From Eubacteriales bacterium (lineage in GTDB: Bacteria > Bacillota > Clostridia > Oscillospirales > CAG-272): 64,000 nucleotides of DNA. The stretch's first letter is position 1; each line of letters opens with the position of its first letter. The stretch spans positions 1,765 through 65,764 of the forward strand of contig JAZRTS010000155.1 of the NCBI GenBank assembly GCA_045652135.1. Reading direction: 5' to 3'. Below the pieces are notes generated by a model. It had not been told where the DNA came from, did not search any database, and saw nothing but the letters and a program-made list of their open reading frames with translations. A program made the translations under genes and the position numbers. This document shows, in pieces, positions 12,653-19,829 of this stretch.

Positions 12653-12660
12653 CAATGATT

Positions 12661-12820
12661 CCGTTCCTTGCGGTAACGGATGATATAGCTGACGCTATGA
12701 TATCTGCTTCGAAGATGATATACGCTTCGCGTGTGAAGGAACGGATATTATATCATATTTGCATAGCAAATATATCATACGGCACAAGCCGTATATCATA
12801 TCGCATAGAGATGTATCATT
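12661..12820. repeat. Hairpin-array element A: 10-mer GATGATATAC family, about 3 forward copies then about 4 reverse copies, separated by short unique hairpins
   Basis: Forward copies at 12679, 12696 (degenerate) and 12714. Reverse copies (TATATCAT core) at 12748, 12771, 12791 and 12813. Spacer hairpins include ATTTGC-ata-GCAAAT and ACGGC-acaa-GCCGT. Long-range inverted repeat CCGTTCCTT (12661) / AAGGAACGG (12736) encloses the left half. Confidence 0.6.
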
Positions 12821-12909
12821 TAAAATGGGAATGAGGATTTATGTCGGAAAATAAAGTGCTTTGAAAGAAAATATAAAGTAACAAAATTAAAATATTTTCC
12901 GTTTTACTA

Positions 12910-13528: not shown

Positions 13529-14434
13529 TTAATAAAGTAAATATATATTGTAGCCGTCACCTATTGGCTCAAAATATACAGTAAAATATTTTAAAGGGTG
13601 AGCACCGCCGTACATCATATACATATCATTAAATGTAAGGACTTCATCATGCAGACGATTTTTAAGCCATTCGCCGCTTAATTCTGCATCCGCATATTGC
13701 GGAACAAACCACGACGAATTATCGGGAGTAACTACAACACCGTCGTTGTATACGGTGATATGTTGCATACCCACGGTTGCACCGAGGGCGGCAAGGTCGT
13801 TTTGTATAGCTTCGACGTCAAGCGGATAATCGCAGGGACTTTTTACCGGGGGTGTCGTTTCCGCATCTGTTACGGGTGCTGTTGTTTCTGTAGGCTTCGT
13901 TGTTTCAACAGGCTTTGCTGTTGTTTCGATAGGCTTTGTTGTATCAACGGGTTTTGTAGTTTCAACGGGTTTCGACGTTGTTTCAATCGGTTTCGTTGTA
14001 TCTTTTGGTTTTACTGTTGTATCGTTCTGCTTCGATGTCGTTGTGCCGGGTGACGTTTCATCGGGGGAAGTTGTCATAGCATCGGTGACAGCTTCGGTGT
14101 CCTCTACAGGTTCGGATATATCGGGTATGTCCTCGCTCGGTGTTTCTCCCGCCGTTTCGTCGTTTGTATTATCTTCGCTTTCATTCGGTATATCTTCTAA
14201 TATATCCCCGTCGGTGTCGGTCGGTGTATCTTCGATCGGCGTGCCTGTATTCGTATCGATCTCTATATCGATTCCCGTACTGTATTCGGTATCATCATAG
14301 GTATCTGTCTGCTCGGTCTGATGCTCTGTGTGTATATCTTCGGTGTATTCGCTTTGATATGTGCCTTTAGGCTCACAAGAAATGCACATTACCATCGATA
14401 ATGCAAGAATTGTCAATAAAGCTCGTCTGAACAC
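13529..14434 (-). CDS. Hypothetical lipoprotein with acidic and Thr/Pro/Lys-rich repeat linker and a ~100-aa C-terminal globular domain
   Basis: Start re-assigned to the GTG at 14434 (AAGGAG SD 7 nt upstream, signal FRRALLTILALSMVMCISC). The extra 97 N-terminal residues of the track ORF (to 14725) lack SD or signal logic and overlap the divergent promoter. Confidence 0.75.
   Translation of the reverse strand: MFRRALLTILALSMVMCISCEPKGTYQSEYTEDIHTEHQTEQTDTYDDTEYSTGIDIEIDTNTGTPIEDTPTDTDGDILEDIPNESEDNTNDETAGETPSEDIPDISEPVEDTEAVTDAMTTSPDETSPGTTTSKQNDTTVKPKDTTKPIETTSKPVETTKPVDTTKPIETTAKPVETTKPTETTAPVTDAETTPPVKSPCDYPLDVEAIQNDLAALGATVGMQHITVYNDGVVVTPDNSSWFVPQYADAELSGEWLKNRLHDEVLTFNDMYMMYGGAHPLKYFTVYFEPIGDGYNIYLLY
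13880..14014 (-). repeat. In-frame tandem repeats encoding KP(I/V)(E/D)TT units (6-7 aa period, about 7 copies)
   Basis: Protein segment VKPKDTTKPIETTSKPVETTKPVDTTKPIETTAKPVETTKPTETT. Matching 18-21-bp periodicity is visible in the DNA. Confidence 0.65.
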
Positions 14435-14462
14435 GGTATCACTCCTTTTAAATTTATTGGTA

Positions 14463-14491
14463 TTGACAAAACTGATTGAATATGCTATTAT
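14463..14491 (+). promoter_or_regulatory. Promoter of the 14552 gene
   Basis: TTGACA (14463-14468), 17-nt spacer, TATTAT (14486-14491). Confidence 0.45.
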
Positions 14492-14551
14492 ATATATGTA
14501 AGGAGCGCATCCGGTAATGTATTTGACTCCTAGTTGTAAAGGAGATAGTTC

Positions 14552-15202
14552 ATGGAACATGTTGAGACTCAGAGAAAGGCCGTTTTTCCTATTGTGCTTG
14601 CTGTACTCCAAGTTGTTGTGGTACTGGTTCTGATATCTTTCAGTTTTATGACTGGTGGATATCAGAAGGGTTTTTTTGATTTGGATGATATTCTTTTTGA
14701 AGGTATTTCCTCGTTTGCCAATCAATCCGATTATGATATTGTCATTGCAGCAGGTCGCCGCCTTGCTTTCCTTTCCCTTTTGGTTTTTGGCAGTATTTTA
14801 CTGGTGATATTTTTGAAAAGCAAGGCCAGAAGCTCTTTGCCGTCGTCCATCAGATCCCGTATTGTGGCACAGATCCTTTCCAATGCAATATTTTTGTTCT
14901 TTGCTTTTCTCCTTGTTGTGTACGAATTCAGCGGTTTTACCCGGATTTTGCTGTACCCTGCGGTGCTTGTCTGCGCCGTGATCTATGTAATCGTTACCAC
15001 CAAATATTCTGTTCGTGCAGGCGCAACCGCATTGATTTTACAGGCTTTGGCTTTTCTGGCCGCGTTCTATATTGTGTGGCTGATATGTCCGCTTTTCGGC
15101 GCACTTATGGTAGTTCTCGGTGACATTTTCTCCTTCCTGCTGGTATTGCTGCTGTTGAGCGGAGGATCTTCCACCTTTGTGCGCATTATCATCCGCTTGT
15201 AA
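14552..15202 (+). CDS. Hypothetical polytopic membrane protein
   Basis: AAGGAG SD 7 nt upstream of the ATG. About 6 hydrophobic helices. No recognisable family. Confidence 0.7.
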   Translation: MEHVETQRKAVFPIVLAVLQVVVVLVLISFSFMTGGYQKGFFDLDDILFEGISSFANQSDYDIVIAAGRRLAFLSLLVFGSILLVIFLKSKARSSLPSSIRSRIVAQILSNAIFLFFAFLLVVYEFSGFTRILLYPAVLVCAVIYVIVTTKYSVRAGATALILQALAFLAAFYIVWLICPLFGALMVVLGDIFSFLLVLLLLSGGSSTFVRIIIRL

Positions 15203-15294: not shown

Positions 15295-15463
15295 CCATTG
15301 CGAAAGCAATGGTATATCATCACGCGCAAGCGTGCATCTCATCACCGAAGGTGTATATCATCAGACGCAGGCTGCATTTCTTTTCGCAATGATGATATAC
15401 AAAACTTCGTTTTGATGATATGCAATTCCTGCGGAATTGATGATATACACGGCTTTTGCCGTG
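15295..15463. repeat. Hairpin-array element B: same 10-mer as element A, 3 reverse copies (GTATATCATC) then 3 forward copies (GATGATATRC), each followed by a unique short hairpin
   Basis: Reverse copies at 15312, 15334 (8/10) and 15353. Forward copies at 15391, 15414 and 15439. Spacers are CACGC-gcaa-GCGTG, CACC-gaa-GGTG, AAAAC-ttc-GTTTT, AATTCC-tgc-GGAATT and ACGGC-tttt-GCCGT. CCATTGCGAAA (15295) has its complement TTTCGCAATG at 15382. Confidence 0.65.
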
Positions 15464-15483
15464 GTTTATGTGAGAGTTCGAAT

Positions 15484-15574
15484 TCATACGCAAAAATGCA
15501 GAATATATCTTTTTTGTAGCCCATAGACAGAAAAAAGCACACATTTGTCTATCAAGACAATGTGTGCTTTTTTC
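15484..15574 (+). repeat. Direct repeat copy 1 (~91 bp, contains a terminator-like hairpin)
   Basis: TCATACGCAAA...AGAAAAAAGCACACATTTGTCTATCAAGACAATGTGTGCTTTTTTC. By eye it is roughly three-quarters identical to 16397-16486. Confidence 0.6.
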
Positions 15575-15577
15575 AAC

Positions 15578-15756
15578 GAAATTTGCCCTGCGGGCAAGTG
15601 AAATAGCTTCGCTGTGAAATATTTGCTTTGCAGATGTGAAATATTCGCTGACGCGAATGTGGGCAAATTTCATTTCACATTGCTACGAAGGAGCAATATT
15701 TCACAATGTGCGATAGCACATTATTTCACATTCGGCAACGCCGAATATTTCACTTG
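15578..15756. repeat. Hairpin-array element C: 10-mer GTGAAATATT, 3 forward then 3-4 reverse copies (AATATTTCAC), separated by short unique hairpins
   Basis: Forward copies at 15598, 15614 and 15636. Reverse copies at 15672 (partial), 15695, 15720 and 15744. Spacers include TGC-ttt-GCA, AATGTGC-gata-GCACATT and CGGC-aac-GCCG. GAAATTTGCCC (15579) has its complement GGGCAAATTTC at 15661. The last copy abuts the -35 of the 15805 gene promoter. Confidence 0.65.
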
Positions 15757-15782
15757 AAAAACGAACGGTTTTATGATATAAT
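15754..15782 (+). promoter_or_regulatory. Promoter of the 15805 gene
   Basis: TTGAAA (15754-15759), 17-nt spacer, TGATATAAT extended -10 (15774-15782). Confidence 0.55.
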
Positions 15783-15804
15783 AACGGCAGAAAGGCGGGG
15801 GAAT

Positions 15805-16344
15805 ATGAAGAAACAAATATTGACTAAATATGATGTTCAAAAAGAACTGCTTACGAGATTAAACAAGCTTAAAGGCATTTCTGTATTTTTAACCTCTATC
15901 GTAATCGTTTGTATAATTCTTTACCCAATACACCTTATAAATTATTTGGACGATGCACCTTTTGATTATACGGGTATAAGAAGATTTCCTGACCTTACAC
16001 CGGTGGTTGTGATGTTCATTATGCCGCTTTTGATAATATTTTTTGTCATTAGCGTTTTTTACTTGTATTACATAGATCTGTATAAAATCAAAAAAGGCAA
16101 ATTTGAAATTATAGAAGATACAGTTTATCAAAAAGACAAGGAATGGCGGTTTTATTACAAAAATTCACAAAAAGAAAATTCACTATATTTTCATTGCGGC
16201 AGAGTGGCGGTTGAAGATGAAGTGTATTCATATTCTGATATAGGAGATAATTTTTATATTGTGATGTTGAAATCAAAATTAAAATCAAAAAACAATCCTC
16301 GCTTAGCATATCATACAAAACATTATGAAATGGATTTAAATTGA
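15805..16344 (+). CDS. Hypothetical membrane protein (2 TM helices + ~90-aa soluble C-terminal domain)
   Basis: Start moved from 15706 to the in-frame ATG at 15805 (MKKQILTKYD; G-rich SD GGCGGGGG). The upstream part of the track ORF is made of the array-C repeats and precedes the promoter. Confidence 0.7.
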   Translation: MKKQILTKYDVQKELLTRLNKLKGISVFLTSIVIVCIILYPIHLINYLDDAPFDYTGIRRFPDLTPVVVMFIMPLLIIFFVISVFYLYYIDLYKIKKGKFEIIEDTVYQKDKEWRFYYKNSQKENSLYFHCGRVAVEDEVYSYSDIGDNFYIVMLKSKLKSKNNPRLAYHTKHYEMDLN

Positions 16345-16396
16345 TATATGCCATCTGTTTCGGTCTTAAATTATTAAAAATCGTTTGAGTTGTAAA

Positions 16397-16486
16397 TCAT
16401 ACGCAAACTTTTGAAAATATCTTTTTCGTATTCCAATACAGCAGAAAAAGCACACGTTTGTTATCAAGACAATGTGTGCTTTTTTC
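16397..16486 (+). repeat. Direct repeat copy 2 (~90 bp, terminator-like hairpin)
   Basis: TCATACGCAAA...AGAAAAAGCACACGTTTGTTATCAAGACAATGTGTGCTTTTTTC. Likely terminates the 15805-16344 gene. Confidence 0.6.
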
Positions 16487-16692: not shown

Positions 16693-17412
16693 ATGCCAAA
16701 AATTATCTGTAAAATCGCCGATATAGTCACAGAAGTGCCTTCTTCGGGCGGTATGGAGCTGCGATGTGGGGATTATATTTATAACGGCGATGAATTGCCC
16801 GATATTATAATCGATGAGGGCAAATATCACCCTGAAAAATACGGGTGCAATTTTTCTGCTGATAATATAGCATATATGGAGTCTGCACGGCAATTTTATA
16901 CACAGCTTTTACATAGAGACGGTTTTTATTTACATGCTTCGGCTGTTGAGCTTGACGGACAAGCTTATCTTTTCTCCGGTAAAAGCGGTATCGGAAAATC
17001 AACACATACACGCCTGTGGCAGCAGTTTTTCGGTGACAGGGTTCATATCTTTAACGATGACAAGCCTGCACTCAGGTTTATCGACGGAAAATGGTATGCA
17101 TACGGCACTCCCTGGTGCGGAAAAGACGGTATCAATAAAAACGTAAAGGTGCCTCTTGCAGGAATATGTTTTTTAAAACAGTCGGTGCGTAACGAAATAC
17201 GTCGCATTTCTACCCTTGAAGCAATACCAAGGATAACGTCACAGACGATATACAAGTTCAGAGACACGGAACGGCTCGAACTTTTGCTCGGACATCTTGA
17301 CAAATTACTTACGATAGTTCCGATATATGAGCTTGAAAATAAGCCGGAAAAAGAAGCTGTGCTTTTAAGTTATAATACTATGCGGCGCGGTGCGGAGGAA
17401 AGCAATTTATGA
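16693..17412 (+). CDS. HPr-kinase-C-terminal-like P-loop kinase (HprK-related, peptide/protein-modification type)
   Basis: LHASAVELDGQAYLFSGKSGIGKSTHTRLW P-loop block characteristic of the Hpr_kinase_C fold. 239 aa, with no HPr-kinase N-terminal domain. Confidence 0.75.
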   Translation: MPKIICKIADIVTEVPSSGGMELRCGDYIYNGDELPDIIIDEGKYHPEKYGCNFSADNIAYMESARQFYTQLLHRDGFYLHASAVELDGQAYLFSGKSGIGKSTHTRLWQQFFGDRVHIFNDDKPALRFIDGKWYAYGTPWCGKDGINKNVKVPLAGICFLKQSVRNEIRRISTLEAIPRITSQTIYKFRDTERLELLLGHLDKLLTIVPIYELENKPEKEAVLLSYNTMRRGAEESNL

Positions 17413-17687
17413 AATTAAGTGAAAATTTTGTGTTGAAGCAGGTTGCAGGATCATACATAGTGCTTCCTATAGGTGGCTCAATAGTTGATTTTAACGGTAT
17501 GCTCACGCTTAACGAGTCGGGTGTTCTTCTGTGGAACACTCTCAAGCAAGGATGTGATATCGAAGGGCTTGTTGATGCGCTTACGACCGAATACAAGGTG
17601 TCGCGCGAAGTAGCGCGTGACGATATAAATGAATTTTTAACTAAACTGGCAAATGCCGGATGTATAGAAGGAGCGCTTGATGAATAA
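17409..17687 (+). CDS. PqqD-family protein (RiPP recognition element-type peptide chaperone)
   Basis: 92 aa. FVLKQVAGSYIVLP...LTLNESGVLLWNTLKQGCDIEGLVDALTTEYKVSREVARDDINEFLTKLANAG matches the PqqD pattern. ATGA overlap with the kinase gene. Confidence 0.85.
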   Translation: MKLSENFVLKQVAGSYIVLPIGGSIVDFNGMLTLNESGVLLWNTLKQGCDIEGLVDALTTEYKVSREVARDDINEFLTKLANAGCIEGALDE

Positions 17688-18108
17688 GGTACTGTTAATA
17701 TTGCTGGCCGCGACGCTTATCCTTGCCGGTGTATCTTGTGTAAGGGCGGATGATGCGAAGGGAGATTCTTCGGAATCGACAGATAAAGCTGTAACTTGTA
17801 TAGATACGGATGATACCGGCGAAAAAGAGGAAGATCGTGCAACTGAAGACGAAACCCAAAACTTTACTGCAGAGTCTGATTCCGCTGACTCTGTTGTAAC
17901 GAAAACCCCGGATGAAATGCCTAACATTACTTATGAAGATTATATTAACATGACGGCGCAGCAACAGACTGACTTTATAAAAAGCTTTTCATCCGTTGGA
18001 AAATTTACCGAATGGTATAATGCCGCTAAATCAAAGTATGATATAGACAACGATAAAATATATATTGGTGAGGAAAGTATCGATTTAGGGGATATTTTCA
18101 ACAAGTGA
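17677..18108 (+). CDS. Secreted acidic protein with a conserved 59-aa C-terminal module (candidate substrate of the cassette)
   Basis: Signal MMNKVLLILLAATLILAGVSCVRA|DD, then a D/E/T-rich linker. The C-terminal TYEDYINM...EWYNAAKSKYD...IDLGDIFNK is shared with the 24637-25224 product. The start lies 11 nt inside the PqqD gene. Confidence 0.75.
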   Translation: MMNKVLLILLAATLILAGVSCVRADDAKGDSSESTDKAVTCIDTDDTGEKEEDRATEDETQNFTAESDSADSVVTKTPDEMPNITYEDYINMTAQQQTDFIKSFSSVGKFTEWYNAAKSKYDIDNDKIYIGEESIDLGDIFNK

Positions 18109-18143
18109 AATGTATTACTTGGCAGATGAAAGGAGATATAACT

Positions 18144-18644
18144 GTGAAAAAAAATATTCCATCGCCTGCCAAGTCACGTTTTATATTTCTTGACGATTTG
18201 ATACCTGTGATTCAAGAGCAGATAGATGCAGGACGCAACGTAAAGTTTTCACCGCGTGGAGTAAGTATGCTTCCTATGCTGAGGCAGGGAATTGACAGTG
18301 TTGAGCTGTCAGGTGCGCCCGAGCGGCTGGAAAAATACGATATTGTGCTTTACCGCAGAGACAGTGGGCAGTACGTGCTTCACAGAATAGTCGGTATAAA
18401 TGGGACGTATACGTGCATAGGCGATGCCCAATTTGATAAGGAATTCGGAATCAGACGCGATCAGATAATTGCAGTTGTGACATCGTTTTACAGAGGAGGG
18501 CGACACCGTTCCGTTAAAAATGTTTTATACCGTTTGTACTGCCGCATATGGCATTACAGCAGGGGAATAAGACGTTTTATAAAGAACTTGGCCGGATGGC
18601 TTAAACGACACGTGAGCGCATTATTTTCTCATTCGGAGAAGTAA
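18144..18644 (+). CDS. S24/S26-family serine peptidase, apparently soluble, with an ER/SipW-type Ser-His motif pair
   Basis: SPRGVSMLPML (nucleophile Ser box) and YVLHRIVGINGTYTCIGD (His where bacterial SPase I and LexA have Lys). Start taken at GTG 18144 (AAAGGAG SD, 8-nt spacing). An alternative GTGA-overlap start exists at 18105. Confidence 0.7.
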   Translation: MKKNIPSPAKSRFIFLDDLIPVIQEQIDAGRNVKFSPRGVSMLPMLRQGIDSVELSGAPERLEKYDIVLYRRDSGQYVLHRIVGINGTYTCIGDAQFDKEFGIRRDQIIAVVTSFYRGGRHRSVKNVLYRLYCRIWHYSRGIRRFIKNLAGWLKRHVSALFSHSEK

Positions 18645-18647
18645 TTT

Positions 18648-19829
18648 ATGGATATTATAAAACAAGGTATTTTAATACTTATAAAAAGTGCCGTTTTGGG
18701 GAAAGCGTTAAAACTTCCCGACGGTTTTTCACTTGATGAGGCATTTACTGCCATTGCGGAGCACCGTATTATTTCTATGGCTTATACGGGCGCTGTTAAT
18801 TGCGGAATTCCTCTTTCATTGCCCATAATGCAAAAAATGCTTTTTTACAGTGCTAAGCTGATGATGATATCGGAAAAGCAGATGCAGGCTGTGGAAAAAG
18901 TTAGCAAGATCTTTTCTGAAAATGAAATAGATCATATGCCTGTCAAAGGCTGTATTATGAAAACGCGTTATCCCACACCTGCGCTTCGATATATGGGAGA
19001 TGCGGACATTTTGATACGCAAAGAACAATATGATAAAATTTCTCCCATAATGGAAAAGCTCGGTTTTTCCATTGAAGAAGAATGTGACCATGTTTTTGTG
19101 TGGAAATCGCAGGAGCTTTTGCTTGAGCTTCACGTGAAGCTGATACCGTCAAGTGAGCATCTGCTTTATGAGTATCTCGGCGACGGTTGGAGATTAGCGA
19201 AAGAAAAGAACGGCTATTGCTATGCAATGACTAAAGAAGATGAATTTATATTTTCATTTATTCATTTTGTAAAGCATTACCGTGACAGCGGCATAGGATG
19301 CCGTCACGTGGTTGACCTATGGATAATGGACAGACTTTTCGATGATGACAGCCGCGCGTATATCAAAAGAGAACTCACAAAGATGCGCCTTGACATTTTT
19401 TATGAAAATATGGTGCGCGTTATAAAAAGTTGGTTCGAAGACGGTGAAAGTGACATCATTACCGAACATATAACACAGTTTATATTTTCCTGCGGCAACT
19501 GGGGGCAAGCCAAGACGCAAGCAATGGCGCGGCAAATGCTCACGGTAGATACGGATGATCCAAAGAAAATGAGCAGAAAATTACTGTTAAAGGACATATT
19601 TCCACCGCGTGAGAGGATAAAGGGAGAATATCCGATACTCGAAAAGGCACGGTTTATGTTGCCTTTTGTGTGGATATGGCGTATAATCAAAACAGTGATA
19701 TTTAAACGTGACAGCGTTCGCCGTTCGGTCAAAAGGGCATCACTGCTGAATGAACAGGCAGTAAACGATTTCAGACAAAATCTCAAAATCGTTGGTCTTG
19801 AACCGAATACGAGGGTGGATCGAAAATAA
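18648..19829 (+). CDS. PF14907-like (NTP_transf_5) uncharacterised nucleotidyltransferase family protein
   Basis: 393 aa. IDHMPVKGCIMKTRYPTPALRYMGDADILIRKEQYDKISPIMEKLGF...LLELHVKL matches the family pattern. Starts 4 nt after the peptidase stop. Confidence 0.75.
   Translation: MDIIKQGILILIKSAVLGKALKLPDGFSLDEAFTAIAEHRIISMAYTGAVNCGIPLSLPIMQKMLFYSAKLMMISEKQMQAVEKVSKIFSENEIDHMPVKGCIMKTRYPTPALRYMGDADILIRKEQYDKISPIMEKLGFSIEEECDHVFVWKSQELLLELHVKLIPSSEHLLYEYLGDGWRLAKEKNGYCYAMTKEDEFIFSFIHFVKHYRDSGIGCRHVVDLWIMDRLFDDDSRAYIKRELTKMRLDIFYENMVRVIKSWFEDGESDIITEHITQFIFSCGNWGQAKTQAMARQMLTVDTDDPKKMSRKLLLKDIFPPRERIKGEYPILEKARFMLPFVWIWRIIKTVIFKRDSVRRSVKRASLLNEQAVNDFRQNLKIVGLEPNTRVDRK

Follow-up and report, generated by a model that had tools for sequence, protein, structure and literature searches.

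The locus and its identity

The stretch of DNA considered here, called the window below, comprises 64,000 nucleotides of the genome of an Eubacteriales bacterium (Clostridia; Oscillospirales; CAG-272), corresponding to positions 1,765 to 65,764 of contig JAZRTS010000155.1 (assembly GCA_045652135.1). Its subject is element C (15575-15753), a mirrored repeat array that is flanked by a bidirectional terminator on one side and a near-consensus promoter on the other, and is followed by a gene for a small predicted membrane protein. A preliminary description of the sequence had depicted forward and reverse copies of a short repeat, separated by small unique palindromes and bracketed by a long-range inverted repeat, and all of these features are present where it placed them. 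The core of the repeat is the heptad GTGAAAT, of which forward units start at 15598, 15614 and 15636, with a degenerate ACGAAAT at 15576, while the reverse units, reading ATTTCAC on the plus strand, start at 15672, 15698, 15723 and 15747. Each spacer between the heptads is its own distinct palindrome, giving seven hairpins in all (15583-15597, 15605-15613, 15622-15634, 15644-15657, 15680-15696, 15705-15722 and 15730-15746). The long-range inverted repeat, or bracket, joins 15575-15588 to a segment starting at 15661 (14 nt, 93%). Allowing at most one mismatch, the 10-mer of the preliminary description occurs 20 times in the window against 8.65 expected, with five copies inside 140 bp, and chance is excluded as the source of this clustering.

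Both halves of element C are matched by the covariance model of the Rfam family Gut-1 (RF01706), the two matches lying on opposite strands and pointing toward each other. The plus-strand half (15574-15647) scores 63.8 bits, exceeding the gathering score of 50, and the minus-strand half (15667-15755) scores 48.8 bits (E 1.7e-8), just under it. Element C shows the Gut-1 layout of at least three variable hairpins, conserved GUGAAAU linkers and covariation. Gut-1 was first described as a probable non-coding RNA from human-gut metagenomes (Weinberg et al. 2010, Genome Biol 11:R31, PMC2864571). The reverse array is already visible in the flanks of the original alignment, and no follow-up or functional work on Gut-1 was found in the literature searched. 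Element C is a genuine member of a widespread, unexplained and only half-catalogued family, and what is added here to the Rfam entry is a loop signature, a cassette context and a candidate partner protein. There is hardly any doubt that 15575-15753 represents one complete 'Gut-1 doublet', forming the non-coding head of a small accessory-gene cassette. It is nearly certain, too, that such a doublet consists of two mirror-image arrays, in which the heptad GTGAAAT is read toward the centre and unique mini-hairpins of 3-7 bp stand between the heptads.

The features of the locus are collected in Table 1, where 4HB denotes the four-helix-bundle proteins discussed below and UTR an untranslated region. 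The arms of the terminator stem (15530-15545 and 15559-15574) are 100% complementary, and almost identical terminators stand before other doublets. The -35 element begins one base past the last heptad. Direct contact between the last repeat unit and the promoter had been proposed before; it is borne out by the promoter scan and recurs in many relatives, the junction ATTTCAC TTGAAA...TATAAT being present in C56, C211, L052, L070, L053 and L057 as well. The same 5'UTR stands ahead of 4HB genes in L052 and L070. No promoter-like site driving either half of element C was found in the scan. The heptads themselves were considered as -35 or extended -10 elements and rejected, the matches being weak and the scan unsupportive. 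Open reading frames (ORFs) crossing the array had been dismissed as repeat artefacts, and we judge them likewise because coding content is not conserved there. The cargo protein belongs to no Pfam or PADLOC family and has only a sub-threshold NCBIfam match.

Table 1. Features of the element C cassette and of the neighbouring arrays (window coordinates)
Feature	Position	Strand	Basis or remark
Element A, ATGATAT-type doublet directly behind tRNA-Leu(gag) terminator	12655..12827	.	Weak Gut-1 match
Element B, neighbouring array, ATATCATCA x3 then TGATGATAT x3	15297..15463	.	Gut-1 weak, 28 bits
Left copy of cassette 3' module (GAGAGTTCGAATTCATACGCAAAAATGCAGAATATATCTTTTTTGTAGCCCATAGACAG)	15474..15529	+	With terminator forms left direct repeat; self-BLAST and alignment
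Bidirectional intrinsic terminator: A-run, 16-bp perfect stem, T-run	15530..15574	.	Directly before array
Terminator-proximal half-array, heptads and 4 hairpins	15575..15660	+	Gut-1 match and repeat analysis
Centre segment GGGCAAATTTC ('bracket')	15661..15671	+	Complementary to 15578-15588; second copy of right arm of hairpin 1
Promoter-proximal half-array, 4 ATTTCAC and 3 hairpins	15672..15753	-	Gut-1 match
Sigma-A type promoter TTGAAA-17-TATAAT, upstream TG	15754..15782	+	Promoter scan, 11 of 12
5'UTR and ribosome-binding site AACGGCAGAAAGGCGGGGGAAT	15783..15804	+	Common to 4HB cassettes of relatives
Cargo gene: 179-aa predicted membrane protein, family unassignable	15805..16344	+	Profile searches
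Right direct repeat: second 3' module and terminator, cassette end	16387..16486	+	Homology stops exactly at terminator T-run

Distribution and shared architecture of the family

The source genome (2.46 Mb in 228 contigs) contains 40 Gut-1 half-matches, each half with 4-5 heptads, at approximately 20 paired loci, and at least six different heptad words of the type RTGAWRY are found among the roughly 20 copies per genome. The preliminary description regarded the arrays as a generic element family with a shared grammar and element-specific words, and this is upheld by the loci found here and by the tens per genome in relatives. The genome-wide search for the grammar that it proposed, made here for any 6-mer occurring at least three times and then its reverse complement at least three times at a spacing of 12-34 nt, returned 16 loci, whereas each of three shuffled genomes returned none. 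Its view that the 10-mers of elements B and C are unrelated had to be abandoned, since both are RTGAWRY variants and both match one covariance model; the words of A and B (ATGATAT, GATGATAT) are likewise variants of this consensus.

Gut-1 matches occur in 30 of 41 related genomes, several of which have approximately 30 each. The named records with paired matches belong to uncultured Ruminococcaceae, Oscillospiraceae, Acutalibacteraceae and Christensenellaceae from human and ruminant guts. In the genome and its relatives 49 doublets are convergent; the 2 divergent ones are artefacts of tandem doublets. One side of the doublet is occupied by a terminator, which in 23 of the 49 is that of the last tRNA gene of a cluster, 30-70 nt away, and the other usually by a promoter whose -35 element abuts the last heptad. 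A bracket of at least 8 nt, formed by complementarity of the left arm of the first hairpin of the terminator-side half to the centre, is present in 34 of 58 doublets; it belongs to the terminator side in 26 cases against 1, and has at least four different sequences. A distant BLAST search of 15530-15800 against plasmid and phage collections gave no match. Repetitive extragenic palindromes with their bacterial interspersed mosaic elements (REP/BIME) and miniature inverted-repeat transposable elements (MITE) were considered and rejected: each hairpin is unique, the identity of the closest copies is 88-89%, and copies just as similar exist in other families.

Hairpins, loop signature and the probable folding strand

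The spacers are under selection to form hairpins. Across the family 190 of 256 distinct spacers fold, and copies that are 88-89% identical differ by compensatory changes or by wholesale replacement of stems, the heptads being invariant. Among the folding spacers the loop is 3 nt long in 119 and the closing pair is C:G in 165, and 113 have the loop ends T..C on the GTGAAAT strand, equivalent to G..A on the complementary ATTTCAC strand. The G..A loops on the ATTTCAC strand include GAA (46), GCA (18) and GTA (10), with GCAA and GTAA among the tetraloops, and internal G.T wobbles favour this strand by 12 to 4 (p = 0.08). In the 91 terminator hairpins of the same genome that served as a control, C:G closing reaches 42%, the loops are mostly of 4 nt and the loop ends are mixed. 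The possibility that the hairpins are C(UUCG)G tetraloops was rejected because their stems place CTTCG in the triloop register.

Mini-hairpins of the type d(C-GNA-G) are exceptionally stable in DNA (PMC13037366, PMC3201870), and in the promoters of phage N4 a C:G closing pair with 5'G and 3'A in the loop leads to extrusion from duplex DNA at physiological supercoiling (PMC4496689). The hairpins of the family have this same C:G closing and 5'G/3'A loop of N4-type extruded hairpins. The signature of loops, closing pairs and wobbles, taken with the heptad spacing and the absent promoter, therefore points, short of proof, to DNA and to folding of the strand that runs against the Rfam orientation. 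The folding energies calculated for each strand as DNA do not tell the strands apart. The promoter-proximal half folds as three independent hairpins (z = -5.0), and the single-strand fold favours a long-range helix of the centre segment with 15578-15588.

The interpretation as an RNA, as filed in Rfam, would imply either two convergent small RNAs, with transcription of both halves running toward the centre, or one transcript that crosses the doublet and folds as a long branched hairpin; in the latter version the forward heptads pair with the reverse ones, and the transcript could sequester a protein such as 4HB or be processed. Several observations agree with it: both halves match the covariance model, the hairpins covary, Gut-1 was graded as a probable RNA by Weinberg et al., and the whole doublet folds well as a single strand (-63.4 kcal/mol, z = -5.2). 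However, the proximal half is immediately preceded by a strong terminator, neither half has a promoter-like site leading into it, and the register of the loops is that of triloops and not of UNCG loops. Moreover, it is the strand opposite to the Rfam orientation that bears the stable G..A loops and the majority of the G.T wobbles, and the real terminator hairpins of the genome differ in closing pair and loops. We regard an RNA as unlikely, although its probability is not negligible; two further points in its favour come from the 4HB proteins and are given with them.

The 347 heptad spacings range over 16-29 nt (mean approximately 22, standard deviation 3.3) and track stem length, so helical phasing is ruled out. 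An operator-array role, suggested for element C in the preliminary description, is possible judging from its position, but a classical double-stranded operator array fits poorly, because the spacing shows no helical phasing and the spacers are selected as hairpins. A conventional double-stranded operator or iteron array, serving a transcription factor or a replication initiator, is therefore very improbable, even though two inverted sets of units end at the -35 element and their mean spacing of approximately 22 bp is iteron-like. The spacing changes with stem length and is not constant as in iterons, palindromic spacers with strand-specific loops are not needed by a duplex-binding protein, and the approximately 20 copies with at least six words per genome have no regulator or Rep gene alongside.

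The doublets might also act as structural buffers or insulators without a sequence-specific reader, their easily extruded mini-cruciforms absorbing supercoils between a busy tRNA gene and the next promoter, or blocking read-through from either side. Their constant position, after a bidirectional terminator and before a promoter, would suit this function, as would the mirror symmetry, which makes the element look the same from both sides, and a loop signature typical of hairpins that extrude at physiological supercoiling (PMC4496689). It leaves unexplained, however, both the conserved bracket and the heptads, which are constant throughout one element but not from one element to another, and which change together. 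Furthermore, close relatives have, behind the same tRNA, a decayed copy of the element, other DNA in its place or none at all, and it is missing from 11 of the 41 related genomes. This explanation seems quite improbable.

The cassette and its possible mobility

The cassette is arranged in the order terminator, doublet, sigma-A promoter, 5'UTR, cargo gene, and 3' module with terminator. The segment from terminator to start codon (C155:17289-17577) is 88% identical to C56:24038-24328, the homology ending at the start codon, and the cargo proteins behind the two modules are unrelated (E = 0.1). The doublet with its promoter and 5'UTR is a module common to cassettes with unrelated cargo. A bare doublet is found again at C56:23303-23500 behind tRNA-Gln (89% identity). 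In other families of the order the doublet module is 85-90% identical, with differences in stems and loops, one stem being wholly replaced.

Cassette C is bounded by direct repeats of approximately 100 bp (15474-15574 and 16387-16486, 82% identical), given by self-BLAST in C155 coordinates as 17238-17338 and 18151-18250 (approximately 82% identical). Each repeat comprises a conserved 3' module and a terminator, and the 3' module also follows gene-less doublets in several genera. This module (GAGAGTTCGAATTCATACGCAAAAA..ATATCTTTTTnGTAGCCCATAGACAG; 15462-15529 and 16387-16443 in the window, as well as L033, L035, L038, L039 and L051) is conserved between genera, with a terminator behind it in every case; a pairing of its ATAGACA with TGTCTAT in the terminator stem is possible and would produce an antiterminator-like alternative.

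The site behind tRNA-Leu(gag) is occupied differently within one genus: by a full doublet in the source genome (element A), by decayed ones in G002 and G004, by none in G007, by a B-like array in G009 and by an unrelated element of approximately 480 nt in G005. As this site differs among the species of the genus, the doublets are accessory DNA that can be replaced, and do not belong to tRNA biology. The stretch in G005 (L275, C171, minus strand) lies between tRNA-Leu and the tRNA-Ser promoter, where it replaces element A and the terminator; it is GC-rich and full of hairpins, its flanks are 97% identical, and it has no Rfam match. A filled/empty pair was recovered for element A. None was found for cassette C; the operon downstream of it has its closest ortholog in G009 (66% identical), where the sequence upstream is a different one. 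That ortholog of the kinase/PqqD/nucleotidyltransferase operon (16693-19829 in the window) carries a 39-aa ORF, MKEYIKPEAELIVFESEEITAPIGFEHGDKSNTLSDEWF, directly upstream of the kinase gene (G009:C329, L072:829-948), which may be a precursor peptide; the operon of the window is without such an ORF. That gut Clostridia accumulate such cassettes behind terminators, chiefly those of tRNA genes, can be said with very high confidence.

A cis-acting site of cassette mobility, att-like or terminal-repeat-like, might be served by a host or unlinked enzyme independently of 4HB, the mirrored arrays being folded single-strand substrates of recombination or priming, like integron attC sites or ssi signals. 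The direct repeats around the cassette agree with this, and so do the duplicated terminators and flanking sequence around other doublets (L049, L068), the polymorphism of the tRNA-Leu site and the 85-90% identity of the module across families of the order. Doublets are also more numerous than 4HB genes and occur without them, and natural mini-hairpins mark priming sites, e.g. G4 ori and RSF1010 ssiA (PMC13037366). Nevertheless, no recombinase, relaxase or primase gene lies in or beside the cassettes, no plasmid or phage match was obtained, and no exact empty/filled pair that defines a cut site was recovered. The two halves always share the same heptad, and the hybrid doublets expected from recombination at the centre do not occur. 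A mobility site is consequently an unlikely account of the doublets, to about the same degree as an RNA.

The integrases of known cassette systems were not encountered. A 398-aa ORF beside the tRNA genes was rejected as an integrase by Pfam, NCBIfam and PADLOC searches, and the same databases contained nothing for 13529-14725 and 14552-15202. No recombinase domain was detected in the neighbouring ORFs (a genome-wide IntI search was not made), and the cassettes, against what an integron would have, carry their own promoter and terminator. Cassette C is not a tRNA-integrating islet either: its repeats consist of 3' module and terminator, GAGTTCGAAT matches tRNA-Ser over 10 nt only, and no integrase is present. 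The candidate tRNA 3'-end remnant GTTCGAATTCATAC is unsupported, having only two genomic copies and a 10-nt identity to tRNA-Ser.

Neighbouring and related arrays

Element B has the reversed order of halves and no gene, and is followed by the 3' module. Its right half is homologous to the promoter-proximal GATGATATAC module of relatives. This half-array module of GATGATATAC units and hairpins often occupies the space that separates a doublet from a promoter of the TTTGCAAAAGTGTGATATAAT form, with heptads oriented toward the promoter in the opposite way to those of element C; it was seen at 15390-15463 in the window, at C56:23500-23560 and in the right flanks of L035, L040, L054 and L066. Elsewhere in the source genome, G000:C46:9816-10300 contains four tandem repeats of approximately 106 bp, each comprising a GC-rich hairpin and a pair of CATTTCA units that surround small hairpins, which give weak Gut-1-like matches. 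Single half-arrays of the ATTTCAY/GCTTCAC type, which are not doublets, are found at G000:C46:3524-3591, C191:25753-25833 and C108:2893-2962, just past the stop codon and first hairpin of ordinary genes; their transcription there would run opposite to the Rfam orientation.

Four-helix-bundle proteins as candidate partners

Several doublets are followed by a gene encoding a 4HB protein of 115-120 aa (TIGR02436/PF05635), which belongs to the Avd and 23S-rRNA intervening-sequence (IVS) protein family. The source genome encodes one such protein of the GTGAAA clade at G000:C177:26516-26863, as well as a truncated second copy in C29; a 4HB of the ATGATG clade is encoded at C163:265-630. The C177 protein scores 101 bits with TIGR02436 (cut-off 24) and matches PDB 2RLD (E 1e-22), the closest solved structure, which contains five chains. 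Avd is known as a pentameric barrel, in which the five protomers touch one nucleic-acid stem-loop with the same residues (bioRxiv 10.1101/2023.10.23.563531). No functional study of this candidate partner was found in the literature searched. The GTGAAA-clade protein has at least 8,000 protein-database matches (90%-identity clusters), of which the best 120 are all at least 88% identical to the source copy, and one match was seen on 318 contigs; such conservation and abundance are unusual for a 115-aa protein.

4HB genes and heptad arrays are associated. Among the 41 relatives, 26 have both Gut-1 and PF05635, 4 have Gut-1 only, 1 has 4HB only and 10 have neither. An inverted array of some 5-mer precedes 27 of 59 4HB genes, against 4 of 1006 control regions, by a detector that misses variants such as TATGA/TCATA upstream of the C51 gene. 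Mapped on the 4HB tree, the heptad class changes 17 times, compared with 39.9 when shuffled, and none of 200 shuffles was as low. In five other phyla all 11 sampled plasmid 4HB genes (from Cyanobacteriota, Bacteroidota, Spirochaetota, Chloroflexota and Monoglobus) have inverted arrays on both sides, each gene with a short tandem unit of its own that is mostly a heptad. Examples are (TAATTCG)x4 ... (ACGAATT)x3, (GGTCGGA)x4 ... (TCCGACC)x5, (TTAGTGA)x18 ... AATCACTAA and (RTGAAAG)n in Treponema. The sampled records (L263-L273) derive from Nostoc, Planktothrix, Gloeocapsa, Euhalothece, Pseudanabaena, Bernardetia, Chondrinema, Treponema, Chlorohelix and Monoglobus, and the 4HB genes are often located between the members of an operon, for example hsdS/hsdR, RND pump subunits or DUF1156/Swt1-HEPN. 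No reverse transcriptase or template/variable repeats were seen at the 4HB loci inspected (a systematic reverse transcriptase search was not made).

Proposed mechanism

The combination of hairpins, heptads and associated genes suggests, tentatively, that the doublet is a folded single-strand display of heptads, probably of DNA, which would be read by a pentameric Avd-like protein and would govern the adjoining promoter, the fate of the cassette, or both. Its working form would be a single strand of nucleic acid, folded and most probably DNA. Within either half, C:G-closed mini-hairpins with GNA loops may form on the strand reading ATTTCAC, coming out of negatively supercoiled or transiently unwound DNA, which is plausible just upstream of an active promoter. 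The 4-5 heptads left exposed might then form a periodic landing pad for a multimeric reader. The best candidate for the latter is the pentameric Avd-like 4HB protein (TIGR02436/PF05635), the archetypal cargo of these cassettes, and its binding might determine how active the adjoining promoter is, label the cassette for acquisition or loss, or do both.

A number of points weigh against this mechanism. As regards folding, the excess of wobbles on one strand (12 to 4, p = 0.08) is no more than suggestive, and a bracket of 11 nt spanning approximately 75 nt requires approximately 100 nt of single strand, which is beyond the reach of local extrusion. Element B and the GATGATATAC module mean that a promoter may be faced by either orientation of the half-array. 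As regards the reader, 4HB cargo is present in only approximately 5 of 49 doublets, and the agreement of heptad class with 4HB clade could arise by plain linkage in diverging cassette lineages. Twelve other genomes, mostly rich in RTGAAAT doublets (G002, G007, G009, G012, G026, G027, G036 and others), were queried for the GTGAAA-clade 4HB; 11 of them lack it, having 4HBs of other clades (49-61% identical) or none, so that doublets are often without a cognate protein, and the twelfth (G023) has a 72% pseudogene. Finally, the heptad arrays of the other phyla lie inside the transcript, at the ATG and just past the stop codon. This location within the mRNA, seen around 4HB genes in cyanobacteria, Bacteroidota and others, and the binding of a stem-loop RNA by Avd (bioRxiv 10.1101/2023.10.23.563531) are the two further points in favour of the RNA interpretation, and together they favour an interaction at the RNA level.

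Wider significance

Beyond Gut-1, PF05635 proteins might be sequence-specific pentameric readers of short tandem heptad words across bacteria, a generalisation that we put forward with slightly more reservation than the mechanism above. If it holds, a 4HB gene enclosed by a heptad array and its inverted counterpart would be a minimal element, selfish or regulatory in nature, one form of which would be represented by the ORFs of 23S rRNA intervening sequences. In Clostridia the element would take the shape of Gut-1 doublets, with heptads spaced by DNA mini-hairpins, and its cis sites would be found in the orphan heptamer repeats of cyanobacteria and Beggiatoaceae. A doublet that lacks a 4HB gene, as 15575-15753 does, would be a non-autonomous copy by which unrelated cargo is placed under common control. 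The link to Avd-like proteins, with its extension to five other phyla, joins Gut-1, stand-alone 4HB genes, the ORFs of 23S rRNA intervening sequences and cyanobacterial heptamer repeats, so that these four orphans can be tested together. It is also relevant to the way in which variable accessory genes are gathered behind tRNA genes and expressed by gut bacteria. Gut-1 has been in Rfam since 2010 with its function unassigned, and the motif is very common, reaching tens of copies per genome in many uncultured gut Clostridia. If it is a mirrored DNA-folding heptad display rather than a small RNA, it would call for other experiments and probably for re-filing.

Comparison with known systems

Integron attC sites and tRNA-targeting islets resemble the doublets in having structure-conserved, sequence-variable imperfect palindromes between stacked cassettes, strand-specific folding, accretion next to a fixed anchor and flanking direct repeats. 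In contrast to them, no integrase is present here, the cassettes have their own promoters and terminators, the heptads and many mini-hairpins are unlike attC, and cassette C is not bounded by a copy of a tRNA 3' end.

Diversity-generating retroelements share with the doublets the Avd/PF05635 protein family, the Avd pentamer gripping a stem-loop (bioRxiv 10.1101/2023.10.23.563531), and their target hairpins have variable GC-rich stems with a conserved G..A (GRNA) loop acting at the DNA level (PMC3240598). The doublets differ in being multi-hairpin arrays with heptads, whose binding by stand-alone 4HB proteins is putative. The tandem heptamer repeats of cyanobacteria and Beggiatoaceae (PMC4679880; bioRxiv 10.1101/2022.06.06.494920) are likewise element-specific 7-nt units in short arrays by start codons or promoters; those repeats, however, are contiguous, have no hairpin spacers and are not known to be linked to 4HB genes.

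The d(GCGNAGC) mini-hairpins and the promoters of the N4 virion RNA polymerase (PMC13037366, PMC3201870, PMC4496689) have the same short variable stems, C:G closing and 3-nt loops with 5'G and 3'A on one strand only, features that in N4 permit extrusion from the duplex at physiological supercoiling. The N4 promoter is, however, a single hairpin for a phage polymerase, whereas element C, on a bacterial chromosome without a known polymerase of this kind, comprises two mirrored sets of hairpins, seven in all, interspersed with one constant heptad. With the Gut-1 RNA motif, the doublets share the hairpins separated by GUGAAAU in each half and the occurrence in uncultured gut Clostridia. Whereas Rfam describes a single small RNA, the element described here is a mirrored doublet with a bracket to its centre, which occurs with other heptads too, is fixed between terminator and promoter in cassettes behind tRNA genes, and has a loop signature that points to the opposite strand and to DNA.

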